This document shows, one piece after another, positions 4,235-61,741 of a stretch of 64,000 nucleotides of DNA (positions are counted from its first letter, which is position 1; each line of letters begins with the position of its first letter). The position numbers were made by a program, and so were the translations under genes. The DNA is from Candidatus Poribacteria bacterium (GTDB lineage Bacteria; Poribacteria; WGA-4E; WGA-3G): NCBI GenBank assembly GCA_965220325.1, contig OZ244821.1, forward strand, positions 4,381,924 to 4,445,923. The letters run 5' to 3'. The notes beneath the pieces were generated by a model, which made no database searches, had not been told where the DNA came from, and saw only the letters and a program-made list of their open reading frames with translations.

Positions 4235-4351
4235 TTTTTCTGCCTCCGTATTAACTCTATTATACGCAATTTCACGAGAAAATTCAAGCGGATCAATATA
4301 AAGTAGAACCAAGATCCACATCGAAAATTGAATGATCCTGAAATGAGATTT

Positions 4352-4381
4352 GACTTGTGTTGCAAATATATGCTATAATTT
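4352..4381 (+). promoter_or_regulatory. sigma-70-like promoter (TTGACT - 18 nt - TATAAT) for the Rpn-family gene, in the divergent intergenic region
   Basis: ttgacttgtgttgcaaatatatgctataat lies 24 nt upstream of the AAGGAAA RBS and the ATG at 4405. Confidence 0.4.
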
Positions 4382-4404
4382 GCTAAAATAGAAAAGGAAA
4401 TAGA

Positions 4405-5325
4405 ATGGCGATTTTTGATACCCTTACCAAAACGCAAGCACAAACACACCCCATGGACTTCGTCAATTACTGCCTAAACTTTGAGCAAGACGAGGCTACT
4501 TTCGTTGAATTGATCGTACCGGAGCAACCTACGGTTGAAATGCACCAGGCAGATATCGTCATCAAAGTAGAACGCAACGGTCAAGAGATTCTGGTCCATT
4601 TCGAGTTTCAAACCACCGACAGTTATGATCCTGAGATGTCTCTGAGGATGGCAGGTTATATCATTCGGTTGGTTGAAACGTATCGGTTGCCGGTGTATTC
4701 AAGTGTTATCTACCTTCGACCGGATGCGGGTCGAAGGGACCGTGGCGTTTATGTGCAGAACATAGCGGAACATCAGATTTTCATTGAATATAAGGTTTTT
4801 CGGCTCATTGAGATGGACGGGCAGCGGATCCTTGATGCCAAACCTACAGGATTGCTCCCTTTCACGCCGCTGATGAAACGTCCGGCGGGTGTAGATGCTG
4901 AGCAATGGCTGCGCCGGTGTATCCAAACCGCCGATAGCGTTGATGTCTCGAACAAACCAGCGTACCTCGGCACCTTGGCGGTTTTGGGAAATTTAGTCTA
5001 TGAATCGGAAGTAATTTCACGTATCATTTCGGAGGAAACCATGCAGCAACGTAATATTATTGAATACTGGACAGAGAAAGCCACAGCAGAAGCACACCAA
5101 CAAGGCCTCAAGCAAGGCCTCGAGCAAGGTATGAGAGAACGGGCCCTTGAAGACATTCTTGAAGCATTGGAACTCCGATTACAGCCCGATGCTGCGAGCA
5201 CCTTCAAGCCCATATTAGAAACGATTGAGGATTCCCAACGTCTCAAGCAGCTGTTTCGCGCCGCACTCTTAGCTGAAAGCACAGAAGACTTCGCACAGGT
5301 TTTAGCGGCAGACAGAGGTGTATAA
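4405..5325 (+). CDS. Rpn-family recombination-promoting nuclease / putative transposase (PD-(D/E)XK, Transposase_31/DUF4351-like)
   Basis: ADIVIKVE...ILVHFEFQTT gives the D...E-x-Q catalytic motif of the Rpn/YhgA family. The C-terminal QQGLKQGLEQGMRE repeat region is typical of DUF4351 tails. A good RBS (aaaaggaaataga) precedes the ATG. Confidence 0.65.
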   Translation: MAIFDTLTKTQAQTHPMDFVNYCLNFEQDEATFVELIVPEQPTVEMHQADIVIKVERNGQEILVHFEFQTTDSYDPEMSLRMAGYIIRLVETYRLPVYSSVIYLRPDAGRRDRGVYVQNIAEHQIFIEYKVFRLIEMDGQRILDAKPTGLLPFTPLMKRPAGVDAEQWLRRCIQTADSVDVSNKPAYLGTLAVLGNLVYESEVISRIISEETMQQRNIIEYWTEKATAEAHQQGLKQGLEQGMRERALEDILEALELRLQPDAASTFKPILETIEDSQRLKQLFRAALLAESTEDFAQVLAADRGV

Positions 5326-5378
5326 CTAATTATCCGTGTAATCCGAGCTTCAGACATTGCATAACCTGACAGGTTAGG

Positions 5379-8063: not shown

Positions 8064-8142
8064 AGAATCTCCTTTGCTGTTGGCTAAAGATGATGCCTCA
8101 TTTTTTTCGTGAATGCTTGCGAATCTAAATACGTTGGTAGAT

Positions 8143-8520
8143 TCATGGGCGGACGATCTGTTGTTGTTTGAGTGCTTCGATTTCTTGTGTGAGTGTCTCA
8201 ATCTGTTTTTCAAGAGTCTGATCTTTTCTGCTACGCCTGCTTGCTAAGATGCCCCACACTGTTGCACCGATGGCAAGAATCGCTAAAGGGATACCAATGC
8301 AAGCGATAATGATGTTATTGAGTCTGTCGAAATTCTTTTCAAGGCTCGCAAATTTGTCGTCAACTCCCTGAAATTTGTCGTCAATCTTTTCATTTAGATT
8401 CTTAATTTCGGTTTTTATCACCGCGATTTCGGTCTCTACATCCATCTGTGGTGTTTGACAGAGTGCTGGAAACCCAGCGATAGCACCTAAAAGTAGTGAA
8501 AGTGCAAGAACATATTTCAT
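8143..8520 (-). CDS. Hypothetical secreted/membrane-anchored coiled-coil protein
   Basis: Start at the ATG at 8518-8520 (MKYVLALSLLLGAIAGFPALC signal peptide) with an AAGGAG RBS. Central coiled coil; C-terminal TM helix IIIACIGIPLAILAIGATVWGILA. Confidence 0.4.
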   Translation of the reverse strand: MKYVLALSLLLGAIAGFPALCQTPQMDVETEIAVIKTEIKNLNEKIDDKFQGVDDKFASLEKNFDRLNNIIIACIGIPLAILAIGATVWGILASRRSRKDQTLEKQIETLTQEIEALKQQQIVRP

Positions 8521-10883: not shown

Positions 10884-11147
10884 TTGGAAAAAATACGCGG
10901 ATTGATTTCTCTATTGGAATCTGGCGTTGAAGACTATGACGCGCAGGTAAAGGTTCTCCAGTCAGAACGCCTGAAATATATCCGGCTCTCTATAACGGAC
11001 GGGTTCGGCACGGAAGAAGGCGACTCTAAACAGTCGTGGCTACTTCACCTCAAGCAACTCGAAGATTCACTCGCCCTGAGACGGAAAACCATACGACAGG
11101 CAGTTGTAGATACCGCAGAAGATATTCAGAAAGAGGAAAACGCATAA
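10884..11147 (+). CDS. Small hypothetical helical protein (87 aa, TTG start) translationally coupled to the downstream CRTAC1-like gene
   Basis: AAGGAG (10871-10876) lies 7 nt before the TTG at 10884. The stop TAA overlaps the ATG of the next gene (TAATG at 11145-11149). Confidence 0.45.
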   Translation: MEKIRGLISLLESGVEDYDAQVKVLQSERLKYIRLSITDGFGTEEGDSKQSWLLHLKQLEDSLALRRKTIRQAVVDTAEDIQKEENA

Positions 11148-14100
11148 TGTTGAAATTTCTGTCTCCAAGTATAGAAAAGTGTTTGAAGTATATCCTGCTG
11201 TTGGTATCGTGTTTTGCTGCCCCAATAGGATGGACGCAAGAGACAGATAACAGCAGAATTATTGAAGAAGCGATCCGGCACCAGAATTTAGGGTTGGCAT
11301 ACCTGGAGGAGTCACAGCCCTCAAAAGCAGTCGAGGAATTTACGACGCTTATTGAACTGCTCCCCAACGAAGCGATCGGTTATGGAAACCTTGCTGTCGC
11401 GCACTTACGTCTACAACAGGCAGACACCGCTGAAGAATGGGTGAAACGCGGCATCGCTGTCGCGCCGATGGATAGCCGGTTACATTTCATCTTGTCCGAA
11501 GTCTACCAACTGCAAGACGGAAAAACGAATTTAGCCGTAGAAGCGATGAAGGAAGCTGTTCGGTTGGACGCCGATGAATTAGAATTTCGCTACAAACTGG
11601 TGCGTCACTACCTTGGACGCCGAAACGACCCGGAAGCACAGCGGGAGGCTGTCCGGCATCTTCAAGAACTGCATGCCCGATCACCGGTGAATATCGTTGT
11701 GCTGATGAAGTTGACACTCGGATTGTTAGCGCAGGAGGACCTCGAAGCTGCTGGAGACCTCTGTCAAGACCTAATGCTCCTTTTAGGCGATACCGACCCA
11801 GACAAACTCAAATATCTTACACAAGGAATAGAAGCAATAGCACAAGGTGACCTAAAACTCGCTACACGAAATATAAAAATTTTCGAGAACGTAAATCGGG
11901 CAAGTCCCCGTTATCAGCAGGGTATCGGCGAATTGGTGACCGACATCCTTGGGCATCCGATAGAGACATTCAGTCCAGGGTTTCGCGCGCGAATCATCGC
12001 TAAAGAGAGCCTACCGATTGAAGTGGAATTTGTGGATGTTACTGAACAACTTGGACTTGCCGATGTGAATCCGCCTTTAGATTTCAAGACACCCGTTGCT
12101 GTCATTCTTATGGACCACGATAATGACGGGGATCTGGATCTGCATATAGTCGCGGCGAACGGTTTTGAGTTGTATCGAAATATAGGAAACCAGTTTGAGC
12201 CTATTAACACATACGTAGCGGACGAAGACACCCATATCATTGTTGCGGATTTAAATAAGGATGGCATACAGGATTATTTATTCCAAAGTGTTAAGGGAAT
12301 CGGGCATATATGGAGGGATACGGAAGGGAATGAAGGGGCATCTGACCTCATCATATATAAAAATCCCAGAACTGAGATAGGGATCCTTCATCCTGTCGAT
12401 TATGATCACGATGGCGATCTGGACCTCTTTACAACCGGTACCACGATGTATCGGAATAATAGCGATGATAAAAATAAAGGGGACGAAAGGTTTACCGATG
12501 TTAGTGAACAGGCTTTTGTAAAAACAGCCGCGCCACAATCCGTACCTGCCGAAGCATTCTCCGCTGATTTTGATGACGATGGCGATATAGATATTTTTAC
12601 GATACACCGCGAAACCGGATGTACCCTTTACGATAACCTCCGTCAAGGGAAACTTCGCGCGATTTCCGATGAGACAGGAATTCACCAGGATATGCATTAC
12701 ACGGCAGCTGCTATCGGTGATTATGACAACGATGGCGACATTGATATCTTCTTAGCAACAGCAGCTCGTATGCACCTCTACCTTAATAGAGGCGACGGAA
12801 GTTTTGTAGACGACCCACGCTTAGAGGCGGATGTACAAGGTATATCCCCTACACTCTTAAAAAACATAGATTACGATAACGACGGATTTGTTGACCTCTG
12901 GGTGAGTGGTGAAGATGGGATGTTTCTGTTCCGAAACGACGGAACCGGGCAGTTCATGGAACCGTATCCGCTAATAGAAACTGGCACACCAACGGAGGGA
13001 GCGATCCTCCACAAGGCAACCGCTGGAGCCGTAGGCGATTATGACAATGACGGCGACCTTGACCTCTTTTTTATCAACCTCAAAGGAGAACTTCGAGCAT
13101 TACAAAACAATGGTGGCAATCGAAATAAATGGATACAGGTGCGATTGGAAGGTATCACTACTGGAAACAATAAAGTCAATAGGGACGGCATCGGCTCGAA
13201 ACTGGAGGTGAAAGTCGGTGATCTGTATCAACTACAATATGTATCCGAACAGGTCTCCCATTTCGGGTTAGGCGCGTTTGACAAGGCGGATATTGTTCGT
13301 GTTGTCTGGACGAACGGCGTGCCGCAGAACGTCATCGAACCGCAAGCGAAACAACGGATTCTGGAGAAACAGATACTCAAAGGTTCCTGTCCGTTCTTAT
13401 ACGTCTACGATGGAGAGAAATACGAATTCGTTACTGACTTGCTCTGGCGCGCACCTTTGGGGCTTGTCACTTCAATGGGGTTCGTTGCTCCTGATGAAAC
13501 GCGGGACTTCGTGAAGATTTCCGGGACACAGATACAACCGAAAGATGGTAAGTATTCCATTCAGATTACCGAGGAGTTATGGGAAACCGCCTATTTTGAC
13601 GAGGTGAAACTGATCGCGGTGGACCACCCAGTAGGTACTGACATCTTCGTAAATGAGCAGTATGTTCCGCCGCCGTTTGCCGAATTCAAGGTTTACGGGG
13701 TCAAGGAGAAGCTGCACCCGAAATCCGCACGCAACCATCGGGGTGAAGATGTATCCGATGCTTTAAGAACGTCTGATTACCACTACGCCGTTGAACACGC
13801 ACCCGGTCCCTATCAAGGGGTCGTTGAACCGCATGCAATAGTTCTTGATCTCGGTGATGTACCGAATGATACGCCTGTGACGCTGTTCCTCACCGGCTGG
13901 ATTTTCCCGACGGATACGAGTATCAATGTTGCCCTGTTCCAAAACAGCGAAATTAATCCGAGTTTTCCGTCGGTTGCTGTAAAAGATAAAACAGGAGCGT
14001 GGGAAACCGTGATTGATATGATTGGGCTGCCGGCGGGGAAAAACAAGACGATTACCGTCGATCTAACGGGCAAATTTCTGTCGGATGACCGACACGTCCG

Positions 14101-14671
14101 AATTGAAACCGATATGCAGATTTACTGGGACGCAGCGTTTTTCACTGTCGGCAGGCAAGACGTACCGATAGAGATGACGACGTTGAACCCAGATAGCGCG
14201 GATCTGCACTACCGCGGCTTTTCGGAGATGTATCGTCCAAACGCACACGCGCCGCACCTGTTCAACTACCAAAAAGTGACGACCGATGCCCAATGGCGCG
14301 ATCTGGCAGGTTATTATACGCGCTACGGAGATGTCAATCCGCTGTTACAAGAGGTTGATGATATGTATGTAATCCTTAATGCTGGCGATGAAATCACGGT
14401 TGAGTTTGATGCCTCACGCTTGCCGGTACTAAAACCTGGATGGGCTCGCGATTTTATTCTCTATAGCGACGGATGGGACAAAGATGGCGACATCAATACG
14501 CTCACCTCGCAGACAGTTGAACCGCTGCCGTTTCACGGGATGTCTGCCTATCCGTATCCAGACACTGAGCATTATCCAGATAGCGAAGCGCATCGCCGGT
14601 ATCGGCTTGAATATAATACCCGACGCGTGGAGCACCGTTTACCGCTATTATCGACAGAAGTAAAACCATGA
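11147..14671 (+). CDS. Secreted TPR + FG-GAP/VCBS repeat + ASPIC/UnbV domain protein (CRTAC1 family), ~1174 aa
   Basis: Start at 11147 (MLKFLSPSIEKCLKYILLLVSCFAAPIGWTQE signal peptide), in frame with the ORF-track 11036 start. TPR helices precede six FG-GAP/VCBS calcium loops (DHDNDGDLDL, DYDHDGDLDL, DFDDDGDIDI, DYDNDGDIDI, DYDNDGFVDL, DYDNDGDLDL). The UnbV/ASPIC core follows (GSKLEVKVGDLYQ...HFGLGAFDKADIVRVVWTNG). Confidence 0.8.
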   Translation: MLKFLSPSIEKCLKYILLLVSCFAAPIGWTQETDNSRIIEEAIRHQNLGLAYLEESQPSKAVEEFTTLIELLPNEAIGYGNLAVAHLRLQQADTAEEWVKRGIAVAPMDSRLHFILSEVYQLQDGKTNLAVEAMKEAVRLDADELEFRYKLVRHYLGRRNDPEAQREAVRHLQELHARSPVNIVVLMKLTLGLLAQEDLEAAGDLCQDLMLLLGDTDPDKLKYLTQGIEAIAQGDLKLATRNIKIFENVNRASPRYQQGIGELVTDILGHPIETFSPGFRARIIAKESLPIEVEFVDVTEQLGLADVNPPLDFKTPVAVILMDHDNDGDLDLHIVAANGFELYRNIGNQFEPINTYVADEDTHIIVADLNKDGIQDYLFQSVKGIGHIWRDTEGNEGASDLIIYKNPRTEIGILHPVDYDHDGDLDLFTTGTTMYRNNSDDKNKGDERFTDVSEQAFVKTAAPQSVPAEAFSADFDDDGDIDIFTIHRETGCTLYDNLRQGKLRAISDETGIHQDMHYTAAAIGDYDNDGDIDIFLATAARMHLYLNRGDGSFVDDPRLEADVQGISPTLLKNIDYDNDGFVDLWVSGEDGMFLFRNDGTGQFMEPYPLIETGTPTEGAILHKATAGAVGDYDNDGDLDLFFINLKGELRALQNNGGNRNKWIQVRLEGITTGNNKVNRDGIGSKLEVKVGDLYQLQYVSEQVSHFGLGAFDKADIVRVVWTNGVPQNVIEPQAKQRILEKQILKGSCPFLYVYDGEKYEFVTDLLWRAPLGLVTSMGFVAPDETRDFVKISGTQIQPKDGKYSIQITEELWETAYFDEVKLIAVDHPVGTDIFVNEQYVPPPFAEFKVYGVKEKLHPKSARNHRGEDVSDALRTSDYHYAVEHAPGPYQGVVEPHAIVLDLGDVPNDTPVTLFLTGWIFPTDTSINVALFQNSEINPSFPSVAVKDKTGAWETVIDMIGLPAGKNKTITVDLTGKFLSDDRHVRIETDMQIYWDAAFFTVGRQDVPIEMTTLNPDSADLHYRGFSEMYRPNAHAPHLFNYQKVTTDAQWRDLAGYYTRYGDVNPLLQEVDDMYVILNAGDEITVEFDASRLPVLKPGWARDFILYSDGWDKDGDINTLTSQTVEPLPFHGMSAYPYPDTEHYPDSEAHRRYRLEYNTRRVEHRLPLLSTEVKP

Positions 14672-16710
14672 AAACGAAACGCGTATTTATCACAGCTATT
14701 CTGTTGTTCATCTGCCCCGTATTCCCCCGCAATGGAATTACGCAAGACTCTACGCAATGGAAATTACCGGAGGGCGCAAAAGCACGCCTCTGTAAAGGAG
14801 AAATTCGTGGCATAAGTTTTTCGCCCGATGGCACCCAAATTGCTGTAGGCAGTGCTACCGGCGTTTGGCTCTACGATGCGCGCACCGGTGTTGAACGCAA
14901 ATTGCTTACCGATCATCTCTCAAGAACGGGTCTCGTGACGTTCTCACCCGACGGTAAAACCTTGGCGACTGGAGAGTATGACACAATCCTGATCTGGGAT
15001 GTTGCCACTGGCAATCTTTTGAAATCCATCAAAAGACAAAGGGCTCGGATACAGGCACTTAGAATCCTTGAAGATAATAAAACGCTTCTTTGTGAAAATT
15101 ACAACGGTTCGGTTCGATTGTGGGATGTTAGCACTGGACTTGAAATAAAGAACTTCGATCTGAAATCTTCAGATAGGTTTGGTGGTGTACTGAGTTCTGC
15201 GTTCGGGTACGAGGTTACCACTGCTGGCTTATATCTGAATAAAATTCAGGACAACGGTCTTTATGCGGTTGGCTACAAAAATGGCAAAATTCGGTTGAAG
15301 GATGCTACAACTGGCAAGCACCTGAAAACGTTTCAAGGTCCCAAAGGTTATATCAACCAATTGGTATTTTCCCCAGACGGCAACACCCTTGCTGTTAATA
15401 ACAGTAACGCTCCGATCCGTCTCTGGGACGTTAACACGGGGAAATTAATAAAAGACTTAACAAAAAAGGCAAAAATGTGGGGAATGCTCACTTTCTCTAA
15501 AGATGGTAAAACCTTGGCTTATCAGGGGCAGTTTGGTGACCTTGAGTCGATTGAGTTGTGGGATGTTGCTACGCAAACACTTCGTACGACGCTTGGTGAG
15601 GATATAGGCACCAACATACATATTTTCGCAGTCTCGCCGGATGCTAAAACGGTTGCCAGAGCGAATCGAAATGGTGAGATCCGAGTATGGGATGTGAACA
15701 CCGGTGACGAGTTGTCTGCCTTTTCAACAGGACATACAAAGCGGCTGACCGCGTTGGCGTTTTCACCGGACAACAGTACGATTGTAAGTGGACATATTAA
15801 CACGATTGCACTGTGGGATGCACGCAATTTTACGCAACTATCTAACGCCGTAGACCCCAAGGGATGGATTAATGCCTTGGTATTTTCACCTGATGGCAGC
15901 ACTGTAAGCGGCATAAAAAGTTTCGCATATAAGAAAAATACCCGCGGTCAACTCGTCAAGGAGGGTGTAAAAAGCACGTTGAGTACATGGGATACACGTA
16001 CAGCAGATAAATTGTCTGATTTGACCGTTGAATCATACCAAGGCGAGGCACCGAAGATTCCAGGCGTGGGAGGAACGGCATCATCTTTCGTTGGAGGTGC
16101 TGCTGTCGTTGTGTTTTCTCAGAATGGTAACATGCTTGCTGCAGCCCTAAATGCAGAACAGGCGACTGAGGATTACCGATTTACTGTACATGTATGGGAT
16201 ATTCCTGATAGGAAGTTGAATTTTACGCTCAAAGGACATACGGACAAGGTTAATGCATTGGCACTCACCGGTGATGGTAAAATGCTTGCCAGTGGGAGTG
16301 ACGATGGCACAATTCAACTCTGGGATATAAGAATCGGGCTCCCGACGTTAAGCCTCCGCGCTGGCAAAACTGGTGCGTTAGCATTTTCCAACGATGGCAA
16401 AATTCTTGCAAGTGCAAACAATTCTGATAGCATCCAACTTTGGGATGTTACGACCGGTAGGCAATGGACATCTCTTAAAAGCGAAAACGGTTACATCACC
16501 GTTTTCGCATTCTCTACGGATGGAAAAATTCTTGCAAGTGGAGACCAGTATGGGGCAATTCAGTTGTGGGATATTCCCACTGGTAACATGTTGTCTACGC
16601 ACAAAGGCCATGTGAGTTGGATTAACTCGCTAGCGTTTTCATCTGACGGCAAAACACTCGTAAGTGGTGGCCAAGATGGTGCAATCTTTCTCTGGAACAT
16701 TCCACATTAA
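14668..16710 (+). CDS. Secreted WD40 beta-propeller repeat protein (680 aa)
   Basis: The start overlaps the upstream stop (ATGA). Signal peptide MKTKRVFITAILLFICPVFP. Many repeats of the FSPDG(K/N)TLA...D.T(I/V)RLWDV type. Confidence 0.8.
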   Translation: MKTKRVFITAILLFICPVFPRNGITQDSTQWKLPEGAKARLCKGEIRGISFSPDGTQIAVGSATGVWLYDARTGVERKLLTDHLSRTGLVTFSPDGKTLATGEYDTILIWDVATGNLLKSIKRQRARIQALRILEDNKTLLCENYNGSVRLWDVSTGLEIKNFDLKSSDRFGGVLSSAFGYEVTTAGLYLNKIQDNGLYAVGYKNGKIRLKDATTGKHLKTFQGPKGYINQLVFSPDGNTLAVNNSNAPIRLWDVNTGKLIKDLTKKAKMWGMLTFSKDGKTLAYQGQFGDLESIELWDVATQTLRTTLGEDIGTNIHIFAVSPDAKTVARANRNGEIRVWDVNTGDELSAFSTGHTKRLTALAFSPDNSTIVSGHINTIALWDARNFTQLSNAVDPKGWINALVFSPDGSTVSGIKSFAYKKNTRGQLVKEGVKSTLSTWDTRTADKLSDLTVESYQGEAPKIPGVGGTASSFVGGAAVVVFSQNGNMLAAALNAEQATEDYRFTVHVWDIPDRKLNFTLKGHTDKVNALALTGDGKMLASGSDDGTIQLWDIRIGLPTLSLRAGKTGALAFSNDGKILASANNSDSIQLWDVTTGRQWTSLKSENGYITVFAFSTDGKILASGDQYGAIQLWDIPTGNMLSTHKGHVSWINSLAFSSDGKTLVSGGQDGAIFLWNIPH

Positions 16711-35420: not shown

Positions 35421-36068
35421 ATGAATACAAAGAACTTAGTCGTCGAATTTATCGGCACCTTCGCGCTGATTTTTATTGGTGCTGGTGCGTTGGCGATCGG
35501 TTCAGCGAATTTAGTAGGTGTTGCGCTCGCTCACGGCTTGGTGATTGTAGCGTTTATTTACGCTTATGGGCATATCTCCGGTACGCATATTAATCCGGCT
35601 GTGACATTGGGTTTACTGATAGCAGGCGAGATTGAATTCGTGGCAGCTATCGGATATTGGGTTGTGCAATTTCTTGGCGGGATTCTGGGTGCGGTTCTGC
35701 TTAATATTTTACTGCCGGATCCAGGCGATCTCGGTGTGACAATTTTAGCTGAAGGTGTTACGCCGGTTCAAGGACTTGTTATTGAAATCGTGCTCACTTT
35801 CTTTCTCGTCAATACTATTTTCAACACCGCTGTGAGTGGGAAAGCAGGGAACTTCGCTGGACTTGCCATTGGGCTCACGTTGGTCTTTGCCATCCTAATG
35901 GGCGGTCCTTTGACGCGGGCTTCACTCAATCCGGCACGGACTTTGGGACCTGCTATCGTCAGTGGGAATTATGCGGATATCTGGCTCTATTTCGTGGGAC
36001 CGTTCATTGGGGCAATCCTCGCTGCGCTTCTCTATATCGGTGTGTTGAAAGACAAAGAAGAAGCGTAG
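35421..36068 (+). CDS. aqpZ: Aquaporin / MIP-family channel
   Basis: Two NPA boxes (HINPAVTLG, SLNPARTLG); the AAGGGGGA RBS. Confidence 0.9.
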   Translation: MNTKNLVVEFIGTFALIFIGAGALAIGSANLVGVALAHGLVIVAFIYAYGHISGTHINPAVTLGLLIAGEIEFVAAIGYWVVQFLGGILGAVLLNILLPDPGDLGVTILAEGVTPVQGLVIEIVLTFFLVNTIFNTAVSGKAGNFAGLAIGLTLVFAILMGGPLTRASLNPARTLGPAIVSGNYADIWLYFVGPFIGAILAALLYIGVLKDKEEA

Positions 36069-36088
36069 GACATCTATTGATAAAAAGA

Positions 36089-36123
36089 AAAGGCTGGCAC
36101 TTTACGCGCCAGCCTTTTCTTTG
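36089..36123. terminator. Bidirectional stem-loop terminator between the convergent aquaporin and hsp20 genes
   Basis: aaaaggctggc actttacgc gccagcctttt: an 11-bp stem with A/T tracts on both sides. Confidence 0.5.
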
Positions 36124-36139
36124 GGTTAGATATTCTGTG

Positions 36140-36571
36140 TTAAGAGGCGGTTGTAATCGGGATTTCAGTCGGTTTCGCGGCTTCCGGTTTCGGAATGGAG
36201 AGCGTCAACACCCCGTCGGTATAATCTGCCTTGATGTCGTCTGTCGCCACATCCGGAGGGAGTGTAAATCTCCGTTGGAAACTTCCATACCGGCGCTCAA
36301 CTCGGCGGTAGTTTTGCGTGTCGTCCGCGTTTTCCTGCCGTTTTTCGCCGCTAAGCGTCAAAAGATTATCTTGGACAGAAATGTTGAGATCATCTTTTGC
36401 GACACCTGGCACCTCGGCGCGGACTTCAAATGTGTCATCTGTCTCCGAAACATCAACCGAGGGTGTCCAGTTGTATGTGTCTGCCTCGGTTCCCATACGC
36501 GTTGGCGCAAAGAACGGGTTGTAAAATCTGAAAGGGTTTCTCGCGGGTTTGCGAAGCGTCAAATAAGTCAT
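36140..36571 (-). CDS. Hsp20/alpha-crystallin family small heat-shock protein
   Basis: WTPSVDVSETDDTFEVRAEVPGV...GVLTLSIPK. Confidence 0.9.
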   Translation of the reverse strand: MTYLTLRKPARNPFRFYNPFFAPTRMGTEADTYNWTPSVDVSETDDTFEVRAEVPGVAKDDLNISVQDNLLTLSGEKRQENADDTQNYRRVERRYGSFQRRFTLPPDVATDDIKADYTDGVLTLSIPKPEAAKPTEIPITTAS

Positions 36572-36597
36572 TTCTTTTCTCCTTTTGTGTTATTGAT

Positions 36598-36638
36598 GAT
36601 ATGCCCCGTGTGTTGTTATCGAGTGGACGGGGCATATC
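36598..36638. promoter_or_regulatory. Perfect 12-bp inverted repeat GATATGCCCCGT-N17-ACGGGGCATATC between the two hsp20 genes
   Basis: The arms are exact reverse complements. There is no T-tract on the minus strand, so it is not a simple terminator; it is not CIRCE. Confidence 0.35.
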
Positions 36639-36650
36639 CGAATCGTTAGA

Positions 36651-37103
36651 TTACGAGTTTGCTGTGATCGGGATTTCGGTCGGTTTTGCGACTTCTGCCT
36701 TCGGAATTTCGAGTGTCAGAACGCCATCGGCGAACTTCGCTTTGATACCATTAGTTTCAACGTGCCTCGGTAGTGTGAAACTCCGCTGGAAGCTGCCATA
36801 CCTTCTTTCAACATGGTGGTAGTTCTTTCCTTCGGTCGCTTCTTCTTGGTGTTTGTCACCTTTGATGGTAAGCAGGTTATCGGTTACAGAGATGTTGACA
36901 TCGTTTTCTGAAACGCCGGGGAGTTCTGCCCGAATTTCAAACCCGTTTTCTGTTTCACAAATATCCGCCATAGGCATCCAAGCGGCATTCTCTGTATCCG
37001 TCCTATTTTCATCTGACCCCAACAGGTCCCCAAAGATGCGTCCCATTTCGTTGTGGAGTCCAAACAGATTTCTCATCGGTCTGCGTGTCGTTAGATAATT
37101 CAT
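36651..37103 (-). CDS. Hsp20/alpha-crystallin family small heat-shock protein (paralog)
   Basis: WMPMADICETENGFEIRAELPGV...GVLTLEIPK; AAAGGA RBS. Confidence 0.9.
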   Translation of the reverse strand: MNYLTTRRPMRNLFGLHNEMGRIFGDLLGSDENRTDTENAAWMPMADICETENGFEIRAELPGVSENDVNISVTDNLLTIKGDKHQEEATEGKNYHHVERRYGSFQRSFTLPRHVETNGIKAKFADGVLTLEIPKAEVAKPTEIPITANS

Positions 37104-37141
37104 TTTTTTTTCCTTTTGAATTTTGTTTATATGGTTGTTGG

Positions 37142-37158
37142 TGCAAGTTCCGTGCCAA
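37142..37158 (-). promoter_or_regulatory. Sigma-54 (-24/-12) promoter, proximal copy, upstream of hsp20
   Basis: The minus-strand sequence TTGGCACGGAACTTGCA matches YTGGCACGrNNNTTGCW at every position; about 40 nt upstream of the hsp20 ATG at 37103. Confidence 0.6.
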
Positions 37159-37205
37159 TCTTTTCTGAGGCGTTTTCAAGATGCTTGCCTCTCTATTCTG
37201 TAATG

Positions 37206-37222
37206 AGCAAGTTCCGTGCCAA
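37206..37222 (-). promoter_or_regulatory. Sigma-54 (-24/-12) promoter, second tandem copy
   Basis: Minus strand TTGGCACGGAACTTGCT; part of a ~64-bp tandem duplication with the proximal copy. Confidence 0.55.
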
Positions 37223-37272
37223 TCTTTTTCAAGCAACAGAAGCATATTCACTTCTGATTTGGATATAAGTAA

Positions 37273-37289
37273 GCAAATTGTGTGCCAAA
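37273..37289 (-). promoter_or_regulatory. Sigma-54-like promoter, third (diverged) copy
   Basis: Minus strand TTTGGCACACAATTTGCT (TGGCAC-N5-TTGC). Confidence 0.45.
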
Positions 37290-37455
37290 CGTTCTGTTAT
37301 CGACTGACGAACTAAGATTAGCATGTTTGTGGGAGTTGTGCTGAGGGTTTCTGTTGGTGTAATCTACTTATCGCCAAGACGGGGATAAAAACCGGTTGGA
37401 TCCATATTTGTATAGTCGGATTGGCGTGGATATAGGCAGAAAAAGAGATCGCCAA

Positions 37456-37471
37456 ATTGGCACACGCCTTG
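37456..37471 (+). promoter_or_regulatory. Sigma-54-like element on the plus strand (TTGGCAC-acgcc-TTGCC), 270 nt upstream of the TonB-dependent receptor gene
   Basis: TGGCAC-N5-TTGC spacing is exact; the -12 flank is weaker. Confidence 0.3.
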
Positions 37472-37746
37472 CCACTGTGGCACTTCGGTATGTCAATTTG
37501 GCTTTAGATCGTCAAGGATAATTTGAGTGTTCTCTTATGCAACAAATGGGCCGCTTATATCGCGCTTACCCTTTTCAAATATCCATCTTTTCTTGATATT
37601 TTTTTTAAAATATGTTATCATTTTTTATAATCAGCGCGGGTTTATAATCAGCGCGGGATAGAGTGTGAAGGATTTTCTACAGTCTCGTAGTTGACATCAT
37701 TTTAGATAAACCCTTATTAAGGATTAGTTGCAGTAAAGGAATGTTT

Positions 37747-39969
37747 ATGAAAAAAATCCCCCGATCGGCTCTTTATTTTTTAACAGTGTTTGTATCTGTT
37801 ATATGCTTCCTTCCTCTTTTTGAAACATCTGAAGCGATAGAAGAAACAACTCAAACAGAAGACATAGATAGCAAAAACGACTCTGAGTCTTCCACTGATG
37901 TAATTCAACTCGAAAAAATTTTGGTCAGAGGTGATCGTGCCTATTCCACGGCGTCTTCAAAGTCTATCCGAGAGTTTGATTTGAATATTCGTCCGATGAA
38001 AACTGCGCAAGATATGCTACAATTGGCACCGGGGCTTGTTGTCACACAACATGCTGGTGGTGGCAAAGCTGAACAGATTTTTCTACGTGGATTCGATGCG
38101 GATCACGGCACGGATGTGGCTATTTCGACCGATGGTATCCCGGTAAATATGGTTTCACACGGGCATGGTCAAGGATATGCCGACCTTCACTTTGTTATAC
38201 CTGAATTAGTGGAATCGATCGAACTTTTCAAGGGTCCCTATTTTGCCAGACACGGTAATTTATCGACTGCAGGTTCGGTACTGTTTCATACAAAAGATCA
38301 TATTGACGCGAACATGGTGAAAATCGAAGGTGGCGAGTTTAATACGCAAAAGGTCACTGGATTGTTTCAGGTGCCAGGTGGCAGTGAGCAGCAAAATATT
38401 TATTTTGGGTCACAGTTTTATAACACAGATGGTCCTGTTGAAAGCGATCAGAATTTCCAGAGGTCCAACCTTTTTGGTAAATTTCATACGCACCTGAATG
38501 AAAGAAACAAAATTGCGGTTTCGGTGAGTGCCTTTAGTTCGGCGTGGGATGCCTCCGGTCAGATTCCGAAACGCGCCGTTGACAATGGTCTGATTACCCG
38601 ATTCGGGTCACTTGACGACCTTGAGGGCGGCCAAACTGGTAGACAAAATATCAATGTAATCTACACCGCCGAAGGCGAAAATAATAGCCGATTTCTCATT
38701 CAACCTTATTTCACACGCTATAACTTTAAACTGTTCTCGAACTTTACCTTCTTCCTCGACAATCCAGAAAACGGGGACATGATTGAACAAACCGATGACC
38801 GCGCGATCCTTGGACTGAACACCGAATATGAATTCAATCAGTCCATCTATTCTATGGAGTCAACGATTACTTTCGGTGGCGGATTTCGTTCTGATGATAT
38901 TGCTGTCAGTCTCTGGCACAGTCCGAATCGCAGGCGTATAACCGAAAAGGTGAATTCAGGTATTATTGAGCGAAACCTGTTTCTCTGGGGGCAGAAAGAA
39001 TTAATTATTAATTCACAACTCCGATTGCAACTCGGTCTGCGTGGCGATTACTTCACCTTTAACGTTGAAGACCATCTTGATACATTATCTGATCCGTCAA
39101 TAACCTTGCCGCATGCTTCGGGATACGCTCAGAAAGCAGTGCTGAATCCCAAATTTAACCTTGTTTATAGTCCTGTTTATTCGACTGATCTTTTCTTGAA
39201 CTTCGGTACTGGGTTCCATTCTAATGATGCCCGTGATGTGGTGATTGAAAAAACTATTTCCGACTTAGAACGAACATTTAGGCATCAGGGATTAAGTAAC
39301 ACACAAATTAACGAACGACTTGTACAGTTGAATTTCGACCCAGAGCAGTCTGGTATTCACACGTTACCACGCGCGATCGGTGCAGAAATTGGCGTGCGGC
39401 ACCACTTCTGGAACCGAATCAATATCGGAATTGCTGGATGGCTGCTGGACTTAGACGAGGAACTGGTTTTTGTCGGTGATGCAGGTGAAACCGAAATCAG
39501 TGGTAAATCCCGTCGGATCGGCATTGACATTGAAGGGCGTGCGCGGATTTTATCGTGGTTGTGGGTAGATACAGATGTGAACCTTTCCAATGGGAAATTT
39601 ATCAACGAACCTTCTGATGCTAACGAAATTCCACTTGCCCCGCGTATGACTTCGACTGGCGGCTTGACAGCTATTCATCCGTCTGGATTTAGTGCTAATT
39701 TGCGTTATCGTTATATTGGTGACCGACCTGCCAATGAGGATAATAGCGTCACAGCGGAGGGGCACACACTCTTGAATCTTGGACTTTCCTACGCGTTTGG
39801 TCCGTTCAAGTATTTCGCAAGCGTTGAAAATCTCTTTGATGTTGATTGGAACGAAGCACAGTTTGACACCGAGTCTCGGTTATCCAGCGAAAAAGAACCG
39901 GTATCAGAGATTCACTTTACACCGGGTAATCCGAGAAACATACAAACCGGCATCAGTTATCAGTTCTAA
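37747..39969 (+). CDS. TonB-dependent outer-membrane receptor
   Basis: Signal peptide, plug domain, 22-strand-barrel-length sequence and a C-terminal ...GISYQF. Start at the second ATG (37747), 6 nt after AAAGGA. Confidence 0.85.
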   Translation: MKKIPRSALYFLTVFVSVICFLPLFETSEAIEETTQTEDIDSKNDSESSTDVIQLEKILVRGDRAYSTASSKSIREFDLNIRPMKTAQDMLQLAPGLVVTQHAGGGKAEQIFLRGFDADHGTDVAISTDGIPVNMVSHGHGQGYADLHFVIPELVESIELFKGPYFARHGNLSTAGSVLFHTKDHIDANMVKIEGGEFNTQKVTGLFQVPGGSEQQNIYFGSQFYNTDGPVESDQNFQRSNLFGKFHTHLNERNKIAVSVSAFSSAWDASGQIPKRAVDNGLITRFGSLDDLEGGQTGRQNINVIYTAEGENNSRFLIQPYFTRYNFKLFSNFTFFLDNPENGDMIEQTDDRAILGLNTEYEFNQSIYSMESTITFGGGFRSDDIAVSLWHSPNRRRITEKVNSGIIERNLFLWGQKELIINSQLRLQLGLRGDYFTFNVEDHLDTLSDPSITLPHASGYAQKAVLNPKFNLVYSPVYSTDLFLNFGTGFHSNDARDVVIEKTISDLERTFRHQGLSNTQINERLVQLNFDPEQSGIHTLPRAIGAEIGVRHHFWNRINIGIAGWLLDLDEELVFVGDAGETEISGKSRRIGIDIEGRARILSWLWVDTDVNLSNGKFINEPSDANEIPLAPRMTSTGGLTAIHPSGFSANLRYRYIGDRPANEDNSVTAEGHTLLNLGLSYAFGPFKYFASVENLFDVDWNEAQFDTESRLSSEKEPVSEIHFTPGNPRNIQTGISYQF

Positions 39970-46743: not shown

Positions 46744-49443
46744 TTAAAGTGGTTCTAACCGGACAGGACACACTTTGAGTTCAGCCGTGTGCGTGACCGG
46801 ATCGTAACCCGAACCTGTCAATAGATTAACAGGGACATCCGCGAAACTAAAACTGGCGAAAACGGTGCCGCGCGGCGAGCGGTTCGTCGCTTTTACCTTG
46901 ATGTTAATACTGCCACGGGCGCTACTCATTTTGCACCATTCACCGTCTGTCAATTCCCACCTCTCAATGTCGGCAGGATTGACTTCCAGCGATTCTTCTG
47001 GCAAGAGGTAATCAATGCCTTGTGCTCTGCCTGTCTGCGTTCGTGTATGATAGGACGCTAAGCGTCTGCCTGTTGTGAGCCATACGGGGAACTCATCGCT
47101 GATTGTCTCCGCGGGGTCTCGGTAATGAACGTTTGAAAAGAGACCGCGCCCGTTGACGAATTCTTCTTCATGGAGCATTGGGGTCCCCGGATGCCCTTTA
47201 TAGGGTACGGGCCACTGGTACTCGCCTTTCTCAACGCGATCCCAATCTAAGCCTGCGTAAATCGGTGAAACCTGACAGAGTTCGTTGAAAATCGGTTTCG
47301 GTGCATCAAAATCAAAACCTTTAAAACCGAGCCGTTGTGCTATTTGGCAGATAATCCACCAGTCAGGTTTTGCGACACCTGGTGGCGGTACAGCGGCGCG
47401 GACCCGTTGGACGCGACGTTCTGTATTTGTGCATACGCCATCTGTTTCACCCCACGCAGTCGCTGGCAACACGACATCGGCAAGCTCAGCCGTCTCCGTG
47501 AGGAAGATGTCAATAACAACGAGGTGATCCAATGAACGGAGTGCATGCTCGCAATGCTCTCGATCTGGGTCGGAGAGCAACGTGTTTTCACCATCAATCA
47601 GCATCGCGCGGATGCTTTCTCCACAAAGTTCTAAAGCAGTTACTTTGGTAATCCCCTTCTCTAAATCGATTTCTCTGCCGTATTCTGCTTTGAATTTCTT
47701 TTGATACTTCGGCTCCGTAACAGATTGGAAGCCGGGATAGTTGTTCGGGAGTGCGCCGCTGTCTCCTGCGCCTTGAATATTATTTTGCCCACGCATCGGA
47801 TTGATGCCGGTTCCCTCGCGCCCGACGTTACCCGTCATCAAGGCGATGTTACATAGACTCCGTACGTTCTCAACACCACAGATATGCTCCGTGATTCCCA
47901 AAGTATAATAGATGGCACCTTTGTTCGCACTTCCGTACCATATCGCAGCGGTTTCAATGTCTTTTGCGGGGACACCTGTAATTGTTTCTGCCCATTCCGG
48001 TGTCCACTGACTGATGTGTTCAAAGAAGTCGTCAAATCCGGTTGTGCGATTTTCGATGAAATCCTCGTCAATCAAACCTTCACGTGCGATGACGTGTGCG
48101 ATTCCGAGGAGCAGTGCGGTATCCGAACCGACCCGGAGCGGTAAGTAGAGATGCGACATCTCTGCCAATCCGATGCGTCTCGGATCCGCTACGATGAGTT
48201 TCGCACCGCGGGCGATTGCTTTCTTAAGCCCTGTCGCTGCGACGGGGTGGCATTCGGTCATATTTGTGCCGATACAGAAGATCACATCCGGTTTCTGCAT
48301 ATCGACGAGCGGGTTAGACATGGCACCACGTCCGATTGTCGCTGCCAGACCGGCAACGGTTGGGGCGTGTCAGGCGCGGCTGCAGTTATCGATGTAGTTA
48401 GTGCCGAATCCAGCGCGGATAAACTTTTGCATGAGGTAGGCGGCTTCACTCGGTGCGCGCCCGGAGGCGATGCCGTAGATACTGTGTCTCCCGTGTTGGG
48501 TATTGACCTTCCGAAATCCGTCAGCGGCTTTATTCAGTGCGTCCTCCCATGTCGCTTCGTGGAGTTCGCCATCGGTGCCACGGATGAGTGGCGTTTTCAA
48601 GCGATCAGGATGCTGTACGAAGTCGTAAGCGAACTGCCCTTTAACGCAGAGTGCTCCCTGATTCGCAGGTCCGTCCATCGCGGGATGGATGCCGACAATC
48701 TTTTCATTTTTCGTGAGCACATCAACGGAACAACCGACACCACAATAGGGACAGATGGTGCGGGTTTTGTTAGGAACGGTATCGCCCACCTCATCAGTTG
48801 CGCGGAGTGCTTTTTTGTCCGCGAGAGCACCGGTCGGACAGGTCTGTATACATTGTCCACAGAAGGTGCAGGCAGAATCCTTGAGGTGTCCATCGAATTC
48901 GGTTGTAATCTGCGTATGGAAACCGCGGTTCATGATATTGATGGCATGGTCACCCTCTTGCTCAGCGCAGACGCGGACGCATCGGTAGCACGAAATGCAA
49001 AGTTCATAATCTCGGAGGATGAACGGATTGTCGTCATCAGCTTTACTGATGCCGGATTTCGCACCTATTATTTTTGAGGCATCAATATCGTACCTATCTC
49101 GGAGGTTCGAGAGTTCGTCTGACGCATAACCTCGTAATGGGGATACCTCAACTTCACGGTTCTCACTCACAACCATCTCCAGCAGCGTCTTCCGATACGC
49201 TTCTATCGTATCGGTTGTTGTCCGCACGACCATTCCGGGGGTCGCTTTCGTTGTACAGGATGCGACAGGATTCCGCGCCCCTTCTAATTCAACGATGCAG
49301 AGACGACAACCGCCGAAAGGTTCAAGCCTCGGATCGTAACAGAGCGTCGGAATCTCTTTTTCTTGTCGTTGCGCGACCTCAAGAATCGTTTCGCCTTCAC
49401 TAAAGGCGACTTCAATCCCATCAATTTCCATCTTATGCGTCAT
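46744..49443 (-). CDS. fdhA: Formate dehydrogenase alpha subunit (NuoG-like 2Fe-2S/4Fe-4S N-terminus + molybdopterin oxidoreductase), a selenoprotein with in-frame TGA (Sec) at 48370-48372
   Basis: The ORF-track pieces 48370-49443 and 46744-48321 are in the same frame and read ...YIDNCSRA-U-HAPTVAGLAATIGRGAMSNPLVD... across the TGA. This is the conserved CxR-U-H Sec motif of FDH catalytic subunits. An fdhF-like SECIS hairpin follows immediately. Confidence 0.8.
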
Positions 49444-59620: not shown

Positions 59621-61741
59621 ATGAAAGGAGTAACAGCGTTCATGAAAAATACATTTTTAGCAATGTTACTCATGTCGCTTGCGGGACTGACCGTGGCACG
59701 AAATGCCTTCGCTCAAGAGTCACCACAATGGCACTTACCGGAAGGGGCCACAGTCCGTCTCGGTAAAGGTAGCATAAACGAAATCGCGTATTCCCCAGAC
59801 GGCACGCGTTTGGCGGTCGCAAGTCGTATCGGTATCTGGATGTACGACACCGAGACGGGTGAAGCCCTCGCCCTACTCGCGCCGAATACTGGGGTTAATA
59901 GTATGTCGTTTAGTCCGGATGGACAGATATTGGCAACTGTAAATGGGAGCTTTCGCGTGCATCTATGGCACGCAACGACTGGTGAACGCTTGCAAACGAT
60001 CCGCGGGGTTGCGAGGAACAACTATCTGTTTATGCTGGATAACGTGGTGTTTAGTCCGGATGGAAACACACTCGCAGTCGGCAGTCGTAGCAACGCCTTG
60101 TTTCTGTCGGACGTAAACACAGGTAAGCAACTGCACACATTGATAGAATCCGGGTATGGTAACGGGATTAAGCCTCCTATATCGTTTAGTCCGGATGGAA
60201 AGATACTCGCAAGCCATATATGGACATACGTAGATGGAGAGGCGAAAAGATACTTATTCCTGTGGGATGTCAACACCGGGGAAAAACTGCTGCAAATACT
60301 TACAGAGGACAAGTTATCGTTTACGGTTAGTAGCATCTCATTTAGTCCAGATGGTTCCATGCTGGCAATAGGAAGTGGGGACGAGATCCGATTCTGGGAT
60401 GTCAACACGGGGGAAACACTGCAAACACTTACAGGACATACGAGTGTCAAAAGCATTTCATTTAGTCCCGATGGTTCTACGCTGGCAACAGCAAGTGGAG
60501 ACGAGATCCGATTCTGGGATGTCAACACAAGGGAAACATTGCAAACACTTACAGGACATACGAGTGTCAAAAGCATCTCATTTAGTCCCGATGGTTCTAC
60601 GCTGGCAACAGCAAGTGGAGACGAGATCCGATTCTGGGATGTCAACACAAGGGAAACATTGCAAACACTTACAGGACATACGAGTGTCAAAAGCATTTCA
60701 TTTAGTCCCGATGGTTCTACGCTGGCAACAGCAAGTGGAGACGAGATCCGATTCTGGGATGTCAACACAAGGGAAACATTGCAAACACTTACAGGACATA
60801 CGAGTGTCAAAAGCATCTCATTTAGTCCCGATGGTTCTACGCTGGCAGCGGTCCCCGAAGTTTTTGGGGACCGCACAGTGCTGCTCTGGGATGTCAACAC
60901 CGGCAAACTGCAAACCTTCCCAGTGTCGCGTTCGATCTATAGTGTGGCATTTAGCCCCGATGGAAATACACTCGCAATCGGTGGAAATTGGATAACCTAC
61001 CTATGGAATGCAAACACCGGGGGACCGATACACACCTTTTCAAAGATTGCGTGTCGGGTCTATAGCGTGGCATTTAGTCCGGATGGAAACACACTCGCAG
61101 GGGGCGGTAGTGATGGCATAGTCCGGTTATGGGATATAAAGACCGGCACGGAAAAGCAAATACCCACAGGGCAAATCGGTGACACGAGAGTGGTATTTAG
61201 TCCAGATGGAAACACACTCGCAACTGTTCCAGATATAGGCCACAGGCAGGGGCGTCTATGGGATGTGAATACAGGCAAGCAACTGCAAGAATTCACCGCG
61301 GATGGATCAGGACTCGTACGCATCTATAGCATGGCATTTAGTCCCGATGGAAATACACTCGCTACAGGTAGTGGCGATTATGATCATACTGAGGGATCGT
61401 TTGGAACCGTGTCGCTGTGGGATGTCAACACGGGGGAAACACTGCAAACACTTACAGGACATGCGGACAGGGTGAGTAGTATCTCATTTAGTCCCGATGG
61501 TGCTACGCTGGCAACTGGAAGTCGGGACGGCACAGTGCTGTTATGGGAACTTAAACCTTTTTCACCGGAACTCGAAAGAATCACAGCCGACCTCAATATC
61601 GACGGGACCGTGAATATTCAAGACCTCGTCTTAGTCGCTTCAAACTTAGGTAAAACAGGCGAAAATCCTGCGGATGTCAACGGAGATCGTATCGTGAATA
61701 TTTTGGATTTGGTTACTGTGGCAAATCAGTTCGGTCCGTAA
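59621..61741 (+). CDS. Secreted WD40 beta-propeller protein with C-terminal type-I dockerin-like domain
   Basis: Signal peptide (alternative start at 59642 after AAAGGAG). WD40 blades (SFSPDG.TLA...WDVNTG). C-terminal DLNIDGTVNIQDLVLV...DVNGDRIVNILDLVTV gives two calcium-loop dockerin repeats. Confidence 0.8.
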   Translation: MKGVTAFMKNTFLAMLLMSLAGLTVARNAFAQESPQWHLPEGATVRLGKGSINEIAYSPDGTRLAVASRIGIWMYDTETGEALALLAPNTGVNSMSFSPDGQILATVNGSFRVHLWHATTGERLQTIRGVARNNYLFMLDNVVFSPDGNTLAVGSRSNALFLSDVNTGKQLHTLIESGYGNGIKPPISFSPDGKILASHIWTYVDGEAKRYLFLWDVNTGEKLLQILTEDKLSFTVSSISFSPDGSMLAIGSGDEIRFWDVNTGETLQTLTGHTSVKSISFSPDGSTLATASGDEIRFWDVNTRETLQTLTGHTSVKSISFSPDGSTLATASGDEIRFWDVNTRETLQTLTGHTSVKSISFSPDGSTLATASGDEIRFWDVNTRETLQTLTGHTSVKSISFSPDGSTLAAVPEVFGDRTVLLWDVNTGKLQTFPVSRSIYSVAFSPDGNTLAIGGNWITYLWNANTGGPIHTFSKIACRVYSVAFSPDGNTLAGGGSDGIVRLWDIKTGTEKQIPTGQIGDTRVVFSPDGNTLATVPDIGHRQGRLWDVNTGKQLQEFTADGSGLVRIYSMAFSPDGNTLATGSGDYDHTEGSFGTVSLWDVNTGETLQTLTGHADRVSSISFSPDGATLATGSRDGTVLLWELKPFSPELERITADLNIDGTVNIQDLVLVASNLGKTGENPADVNGDRIVNILDLVTVANQFGP
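60361..60847. repeat. Four tandem 120-bp repeats (copies 2-4 differ by a single base) inside the WD40 gene, encoding 40-aa blade units SGDEIRFWDVNTRETLQTLTGHTSVKSISFSPDGSTLATA
   Basis: The period is exactly 120 bp (60361/60481/60601/60721). The only variation among copies 2-4 is catttca versus catctca. Confidence 0.8.

Follow-up and report, generated by a model that had tools for sequence, protein, structure and literature searches.

The intergenic region upstream of a small heat-shock protein (sHSP) operon, hsp20A-hsp20B, was analysed in a stretch of 64,000 nucleotides from a Candidatus Poribacteria genome (contig OZ244821.1, positions 4,381,924 to 4,445,923). This whole stretch is called the window below, and positions are counted from its first letter. 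The operon lies on the minus strand and appears to be controlled by an array of three sigma-54 promoters under an enhancer made up of three dyads, from which a cognate activator would fire the array under stress. We assign a probability of roughly 0.7 to this reading, which is built on the comparison of sequences.

The mechanism that we propose can be described as follows. RNA polymerase carrying sigma-54 (RpoN) would transcribe the operon from three -24/-12 promoters of the same sense, positioned 64 and 66 nt apart, i.e. at distances of about six helical turns, and a silent closed complex would be held at each of them. An AAA+ enhancer-binding activator, encoded elsewhere, would assemble on the three phased dyads ~165-220 nt upstream of the distal promoter, loop to the promoters, and fire upon proteotoxic or heat stress. 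With several poised promoters served by one enhancer, there would be no basal expression, and the burst of sHSP mRNA would be larger and faster than that of a single promoter. The two transcripts of the upstream promoters would start with a short stem-loop at about +5 that probably protects their 5' ends, and the proximal transcript would have a short, unstructured, A-rich leader.

Putative promoter sites upstream of hsp20 and their conservation

Three sigma-54-type sites precede hsp20A on the minus strand. The distal site, TTTGGCACACAATTTGC(T), is located at 37273..37289, the middle site, TTGGCACGGAACTTGC(T), at 37207..37222 and the proximal site, TTGGCACGGAACTTGC(A), at 37143..37158; all three are exact matches, and their start sites are predicted at ~37261, ~37195 and ~37131, respectively. 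Read along the minus strand, the order is GTTTGGCACACAATTTGCTT, GATTGGCACGGAACTTGCTC and GATTGGCACGGAACTTGCACCAACAACCATATAAACAAAATTCAAAAGGAAAAAAAAATG, with a period of 66 nt between the first two and of 64 nt between the last two. The initial annotation had quoted three promoter strings for this region, and all of them were located on the minus strand where it had placed them: TTGGCACGGAACTTGCA (37158-37142), TTGGCACGGAACTTGCT (37222-37206) and TTTGGCACACAATTTGCT (37289-37272). Each contains an exact TGGCAC-N5-TTGC (37143-57, 37207-21 and 37273-87, respectively), with the GG and GC doublets exactly ten bases apart. The distance of ~40 nt that it had given from the proximal copy to the hsp20 start agrees with our measurement, as the ATG of hsp20A (37103) is 39 nt past the proximal TTGC. 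The predicted leader of the proximal transcript is ~28 nt long and A-rich.

The excess of this motif in the window is real and far beyond chance. There are 5 exact matches to TGGCAC-N5-TTGC in 64 kb, both strands included, as opposed to the 0.15 +/- 0.36 expected from dinucleotide-preserving shuffles, and 4 out of the 5 fall within the hsp20 intergenic region, the fourth of them being on the plus strand 170 nt beyond the other three. When the scan for further sites was extended to 432 kb of Poribacteria DNA, the exact motif was found upstream of hsp20 only, save for the fifth match of the window. The latter, an exact TGGCACCCAAATTGC at 14829-14843 (plus strand), is isolated and lies within the 5' part of an open reading frame (ORF) encoding a WD40-repeat protein (14668-16710). 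No usable sigma-70 promoter facing hsp20 was found in the region: the sole match on the hsp20 strand is weak (9/12) and overlaps the middle sigma-54 site.

The comparison set consists of 38 hsp20 loci (labelled L002 etc. where they have to be told apart) that were collected by a scan of species-representative genomes, almost all of them Candidatus Poribacteria. In nearly all of these loci one to three same-sense sites are present upstream of the hsp20 orthologue, at -52 to -192 from the ATG, and the proximal position (-52 to -67) is occupied in 33 of the 38. The distal site of the window corresponds to TTTGGCACGGAATTTGCT, the distal site of most loci; the middle copy is restricted to the clade of the window (window and L002-L004). 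Altogether 90 sites were gathered by means of a relaxed pattern in which GG and the first letter of GC are preset, and decayed copies escape this counting; with these positions thus fixed by the pattern, GG is found in 90/90 and GC in 89-90/90 sites, at the canonical spacing. The positions left free by the pattern are also canonical, namely T before GG (90/90), AA in the spacer (87/90), A or T after GC, and C or T after GGCA. The consensus over the 90 sites, TTGGCA[CT]RRAA[CT]TTGC[AT], fits the canonical YTGGCACGrNNNTTGCW, and at orthologous loci the -24 and -12 elements are conserved while the intervening and flanking sequence varies freely.

The loci share a common layout. It starts with TTTGGCACGGAATTTGCT, followed by a spacer of ~48 nt with an inverted repeat (typically GAGGCAA-N11-TTGCCTC) and by GAAAAGA; then come the proximal site or sites, ATTGGCAYRRAACTTGCA, and a leader rich in A that contains AAGGAG. 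Both the distal and the proximal sites have a recurrent ACAAAC-like motif at their predicted +1, which is only suggestive of a start-site signal. In L039 (4880-5000), a distant locus whose Hsp20 is 33% identical, a single TTTGGCACGACAGTTGCTT stands ~49 nt before the likely ATG; judging from this locus, the link between sigma-54 and hsp20 may extend beyond the crown Poribacteria. The reading of the sites as sigma-54 promoters, already put forward in the initial annotation, is much strengthened by the 90 sites in 38 genomes, by the absence of a usable sigma-70 promoter and by the enhancer-like triple dyad found further upstream. Although unproven, it is well supported by sequence conservation.

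The number of sites differs between lineages, and two kinds of multiplication can be distinguished. One site is found in the basal lineages L032-L034 and in the distant L039, and two are found in many lineages. Where a third site is present, many lineages have it as a tandem copy of the proximal promoter over 23 nt; the window clade instead has it ~64 nt away. The spacings between sites form clusters at 23 nt and at 61-66, 72-73 and 84 nt, the last three being close to 6, 7 and 8 helical turns. Copies have also been lost, as the proximal site of L028 is mutated to TTACCA and the distal site of L029 has decayed.

Two of the three sites of the window had been ascribed to a 64-bp duplication. This holds in as much as the proximal and middle copies share a perfect repeat of 22 nt (~26 nt with mismatches) at a 64-nt period, but it does not hold for the remaining ~41 nt, since within the window the stretches of ~40 nt that separate the cores resemble each other no more than shuffled sequence does (p = 0.38). 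Significant similarity of the two spacers persists in L002-L004 (p = 0.008-0.03), which makes an old duplication of the whole ~64-nt unit plausible, although the window itself does not show it directly. This unit, i.e. hairpin spacer plus proximal promoter, would then probably have given rise to the triplet of the window clade by duplication, and within the window all but the core of 22-26 nt would have diverged since. The existence of two kinds of multiplication, together with the strict retention of GG and GC in every recognisable copy, suggests that promoter copy number is under selection. The earlier proposal that the multiplication of promoters tunes the output is therefore plausible, given that two different kinds have been fixed in different lineages.

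Upstream dyad block and inter-promoter hairpins

A conserved block of three 13-bp dyads, newly recognised here, is found upstream of the distal promoter (37450..37503, on the hsp20 strand). It is enhancer-like, that is, a putative activator site. The dyads, A AGCCAAATTGACA (37503-37491), B TGCCACAGTGGCA (37482-37470) and C TGCCAATTTGGCG (37462-37450), all on the minus strand, form a block of ~55 nt that reads AGCCAAATTGACA-N8-TGCCACAGTGGCA-N7-TGCCAATTTGGCG, and their start-to-start spacing is 21 and 20 nt. The dyad type is TGYCA-N3-TGRCA; its only occurrence in the window is dyad B, which is identical in 30 out of 38 loci. Across the genomes the block is found ~100-300 nt upstream of the distal promoter and 160-490 nt from the ATG. 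Its distance from the promoter varies from directly adjacent (L037) to ~300 nt (L027), as expected for an enhancer. A recognisably similar triple dyad is also carried by the basal lineages L032-L034. The conservation of this enhancer-like element implies that a cognate activator exists.

The spacers between the promoters contain predicted hairpins. Hairpin 1 of the window (CAGAAG-N8-CTTCTG, 37237..37256, minus strand) is present in both the minimum free energy and the centroid folds (z = -2.9) and would start at ~+5 of the distal transcript. Hairpin 2 (GAGGC-N15-GCCTC, 37167..37191, minus strand; z = -1.8) would start at ~+5 of the middle transcript, and it ends ~9 nt before the proximal -24 element. 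Of the ~40 spacers between promoters, most are predicted to form hairpins of 5-10 bp, generally with z of -1 to -3.8. They begin 12-17 nt past TTGC, which corresponds to about +1 to +5 if transcription starts 12 nt after GC. In the sister genomes the position of hairpin 1 is taken by hairpins with other stem sequences, and hairpin 2 is kept in most loci as GAGGCAA..TTGCCTC.

Covariation was assessed on an alignment of 25 sequences with a stem of 7 bp given by hand: 85.5% of the cells are paired as opposed to 83.1% in shuffles, and 3/7 pairs are changed on both sides. RNAalifold, applied to the spacer alignment, returned a consensus stem of 3 bp only, because the outer stem slips register between clades. 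An RNA thermometer was also considered as an explanation of the leader, and rejected: there is no Rfam match in 36000-37800, the Shine-Dalgarno sequence is unpaired in the minimum free energy fold, and the z of the leader is +0.66.

Alternative readings of the region

At first sight, a single working sigma-54 promoter might explain the data, most likely the proximal one, with the other copies being relics, holoenzyme sinks or roadblocks that do not add to the output. A single site suffices in the basal lineages, copy loss has occurred in L028 (proximal, TTACCA) and L029 (distal, decayed), and the simultaneous occupancy of sites 23 nt apart is improbable. We nevertheless regard this explanation as unlikely. 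All copies in multi-site loci keep GG (90/90) and GC (89-90/90), even if GG and the G of GC were preset by the pattern used for collecting; between the middle and proximal copies of the window the core is identical in 22/22 positions while their spacers have decayed to noise, which argues that each core is under selection; multiplication of two different kinds has been fixed; and each upstream copy is followed by a hairpin of its own at ~+5. A much less probable idea is that TTGGCAC-N4-CTTGCA represents operators, in the form of direct repeats phased at 11 bp, where a conventional factor, e.g. a response regulator of the winged-helix type, would act on a sigma-70 promoter. The motif is indeed readable as a direct repeat of 7 bp whose two copies are separated by one helical turn, and no rpoN gene was found in the window or the loci. 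However, there is no conserved -35/-10 pair downstream of any copy, and the 9/12 sigma-70-like match that overlaps the middle site is not conserved elsewhere. The free positions follow the sigma-54 consensus (T before GG, C/T after GGCA, A/T after GC), and the proximal leader, at 28 nt, agrees with a start 12 nt after GC and is too short to accommodate another core promoter. This idea we consider very improbable.

The inverted repeats between the promoters might act as DNA, at ~-45 to -50 from the next start, by binding a repressor, a protein that bends DNA like IHF, or a second activator; of the alternatives discussed here this is the one that we take most seriously, even though it remains doubtful. 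Many sigma-54 promoters carry IHF sites just upstream of the -24 element, and this is where the repeats are found. IHF sites have also been described for glmY (PMC3045617). In addition, the stem GAGGCAA/TTGCCTC and the loop core ACATC are largely conserved themselves, and the covariation of the hairpin is modest. On the other hand, the duplicated hairpins of the window clade have quite different stems (CAGAAG/CTTCTG, AGAAGC/GCTTCT) in the same place, several stems differ by changes that are compensatory or lead to G-U pairs (GAGGTAA/TTACCTC, GAGGTGA/TCGCCTC), and the IHF consensus WATCAANNNNTTR, when compared by eye, is poorly matched in the hairpin region. Since the duplicated hairpins have different stems at the same position, the comparison favours a structural role of the hairpins in RNA, most simply the protection of the 5' ends of the longer transcripts. 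A separate alternative concerns the plus-strand string TGGCACACGCCTTGC (37458..37472), an exact TGGCAC-N5-TTGC formed from the half-sites of dyads C and B, which could be a real fourth sigma-54 promoter serving the divergent gene of a TonB-dependent receptor (37741-39969) in a bidirectional sigma-54 region. The string is oriented toward this gene, and a reverse match with at most one mismatch is found in 19/38 loci. Yet dyad C is TGTCA in about half of the loci, which destroys GG (TGACA) and retains the dyad. Moreover, the reverse match is kept in 4/8 loci with the divergent receptor vs 15/30 without it, and in the majority of loci it would run into the 3' end of a co-directional PRK-like gene. 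Its distance from the receptor ATG in the window is 270 nt, and the gene has better candidates in the sigma-70-like sites at 37593-37631. A fourth promoter is thus rather improbable; as the string is composed of half-sites, loses GG while the dyad persists and is unrelated to the divergent gene, it is most likely a by-product of the enhancer block.

A number of observations weigh against the stress-fired array itself. Pfam scans of ~40 ORFs found no gene for rpoN or an enhancer-binding protein in the 64-kb window, and a six-frame search for the motifs GAFTGA, RpoN box and ESELFGH in the window and 39 loci (10-kb) gave no match. A metagenome scan for the enhancer block returned three further loci, all of them hsp20, and no wider regulon is visible. 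Two holoenzymes at 23-nt spacing probably cannot bind together, and therefore a larger number of poised polymerases is not the whole explanation in those lineages. The hairpins show modest covariation with a largely conserved stem sequence, so that a DNA-level dyad is possible, e.g. a protein site just upstream of the proximal promoter. Finally, taken over its full length, the long leader shows no more structure than shuffled sequence does. The initial annotation had also spoken of a stress regulon, for which there is no sign as yet: in the DNA examined only the hsp20 operon carries the promoter and enhancer elements. A literature search for sigma-54 or rpoN in Poribacteria found nothing relevant. 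As a candidate activator we considered a 453-aa ORF upstream of the hsp20 gene of L039; it was rejected, being a mannose-1-phosphate guanylyltransferase.

The half-site of the enhancer, TGGCA, is the same as the -24 element, so that half of the genomes have an enhancer-like block that can be read as a sigma-54 site in reverse. One may speculate about a broader picture in which repeated multiplication of sigma-54 promoters, by 23-nt or 64-nt duplications, has built a helically phased array served by one enhancer. Such an array would be a transcriptional amplifier whose preloaded polymerases fire together, mRNA isoforms with and without a protective 5' hairpin would provide a fast pulse and a long tail, and the TGGCA half-site of the enhancer, being a -24 element, may dock the holoenzyme. 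That all these parts hold jointly is a long shot.

Gene context and relation to known systems

Both ORFs downstream of the array contain the alpha-crystallin domain PF00011 above the gathering score of 20.8, hsp20A (150 aa, 36651..37103, minus strand) with E 1.5e-26 and 92.9 bits, and hsp20B, the second gene of the operon (143 aa, 36140..36571, minus strand), with E 2.2e-27 and 95.5 bits. The Shine-Dalgarno sequence of hsp20A is AAGGA at 37111-37115. The genes are separated by a hairpin with a 12-bp stem and without a U-tract (36598..36638, minus strand; -22.8 kcal/mol, z = -4.8). The operon ends in an intrinsic terminator with a 17-bp stem and a U-run (36075..36122, minus strand; -33.9 kcal/mol, z = -8.6), which is common to the convergent gene of a MIP channel (aquaporin-like). 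A second hsp20-sized ORF follows the first in most of the 38 loci. In L038 (4048-5000) an extra hsp20 stands in tandem, giving three consecutive copies with the enhancer block and the promoters before the first copy only. Hsp20A has hundreds of close relatives, the named ones being Candidatus Poribacteria, and its orthologues in Poribacteria are 68-96% identical. The initial annotation was correct in stating that the organism is not a cyanobacterium, as Candidatus Poribacteria is the source of the hsp20 relatives and of the 38 loci.

In 33 loci the gene kept upstream is PRK/uridine-kinase-like and co-directional. Between this gene and hsp20, which are otherwise adjacent, the divergent gene of the TonB-dependent receptor forms an insertion that is found only in 8 examined loci (window, L002, L004, L005, L008, L009, L016, L026). 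A perfect 17-nt tandem repeat, TTTATAATCAGCGCGGG x2, with TATAAT in each copy, is located at 37624-37657 (plus strand), between the sigma-70-like -35/-10 hexamers (37593-37631) and the receptor ATG (37741); it looks like a duplicated -10 region.

There are a few further features of the window that may be mentioned. A formate-dehydrogenase-like molybdopterin oxidoreductase (46744-49443, minus strand) is split into two ORFs by one in-frame TGA (48370-48372) within NCSRA-*-HAPTVAG. As the TGA matches the position of the selenocysteine/cysteine ligand motif, the two ORFs are probably one candidate selenoprotein gene. The genes in 497-8213 (minus strand) seem to be arranged as in a defence island: two paralogous ATPase genes of the AAA_15/AAA_21/DUF3696 type (1045-2361, 2885-4321) each precede an ORF of ~180 aa with no Pfam match (497-1048, 2358-2885), and a 944-aa N6/N4 DNA methylase (5379-8213) adjoins these pairs. 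Large repeat proteins are encoded at 11036-16710 and 59621-61741 (plus strand), one of them of the FG-GAP/TPR type (1211 aa) and two with WD40 repeats (680 and 706 aa). These are the accessory genes that had earlier been called cyanobacteria-like, and "eukaryote-like" describes them as well. Large FG-GAP/TPR/WD40 repeat proteins are typical of Poribacteria genomes.

It is useful to compare the array with the known systems. The link between sHSPs and sigma-54 is itself already known, and the Poribacteria layout is an unusual variant of known stress-gene control. According to PMC2831329, which cites Kuczynska-Wisnik 2001 on this point, ibpB of E. coli is controlled by sigma-54; in the same paper ibpB was pulled down with an anti-sigma-54 antibody and served as the positive control in chromatin immunoprecipitation. 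Like the genes discussed here, ibpB is a small heat-shock gene with a -24/-12 promoter that is linked to RpoN. It differs in having a single site of weak consensus (TGGTAA-N5-TTGC) in an operon driven mainly by sigma-32, whereas the Poribacteria loci have one to three near-perfect sites as their only recognisable promoters, plus a dedicated enhancer-like block. In Chlorobaculum tepidum an RpoN motif is present at the mapped primary start site of CT0644, a member of the HSP20 family (bioRxiv 10.1101/172254). This, too, is a predicted sigma-54 promoter that immediately precedes an hsp20 gene, in a phylum other than the Proteobacteria, although there is a single site, and an array, an enhancer block and hairpins are not described there. 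The statement that small heat-shock genes are usually under sigma-32/sigma-70 or repressor control, made when the region was first annotated, has to be read next to these sigma-54 precedents, ibpB being known from the source quoted and CT0644 predicted. Taken with these two cases, the Poribacteria operon is more evidence that the sHSP-RpoN link is widespread and not an oddity of E. coli.

The enhancer-like block resembles the GlrR system. GlrR (QseF) activates glmY and glmZ via three dyad sites that lie upstream of a sigma-54 promoter at a distance of more than 100 bp (PMC3045617), and both the number and the distance of the dyads as well as the half-sites (TGTC...GACA) are similar to those found here. 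The spacing within the dyads is different, TGTC-N10-GACA in GlrR vs TGYCA-N3-TGRCA (i.e. TGTC-N5-GACA) in Poribacteria. Furthermore, the GlrR targets are small RNAs with one sigma-54 promoter, which in some species is overlapped by a sigma-70 promoter. Stress- or heat-inducible systems with sigma-54 and a dedicated enhancer-binding protein are also represented by PspF-pspA and by HsfA-lonD of Myxococcus, both with single promoters, and PspF is kept inactive by the product of its own target. By analogy, the putative Poribacteria activator could be gated by chaperones in a PspF-like manner; a homologous activator or negative regulator was, in contrast to these systems, not identified in the window or the loci. 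Among hsp20-family genes, structured leaders are known from the RNA thermometers, i.e. ROSE, fourU and the leader of cyanobacterial hsp17. Unlike these, the Poribacteria hairpins are predicted where the long transcripts begin, and 60-130 nt separate them from a Shine-Dalgarno sequence that is unpaired.

Sigma-54 promoters are normally single. A phrase search of open-access text found no description of tandem same-sense sigma-54 promoters, only cases in which a sigma-54 promoter overlaps a sigma-70 one (glmY); this is weak evidence that such tandems are rare. What is different in Poribacteria is the combination of near-consensus sites as sole promoters, same-sense arrays of up to three, two kinds of duplication, a triple-dyad enhancer-like block and predicted 5' hairpins, all of it phylum-wide. 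That a phylum-wide array was enlarged twice suggests that promoter copy number is a selectable setting for the size of an all-or-none stress response. For the Poribacteria, uncultured symbionts of sponges, this provides a testable stress circuit whose candidate parts are promoters, enhancer dyads and leader hairpins, in front of an sHSP operon of two genes, and TGCCACAGTGGCA in three phased dyads offers a specific DNA bait for the identification of the activator.

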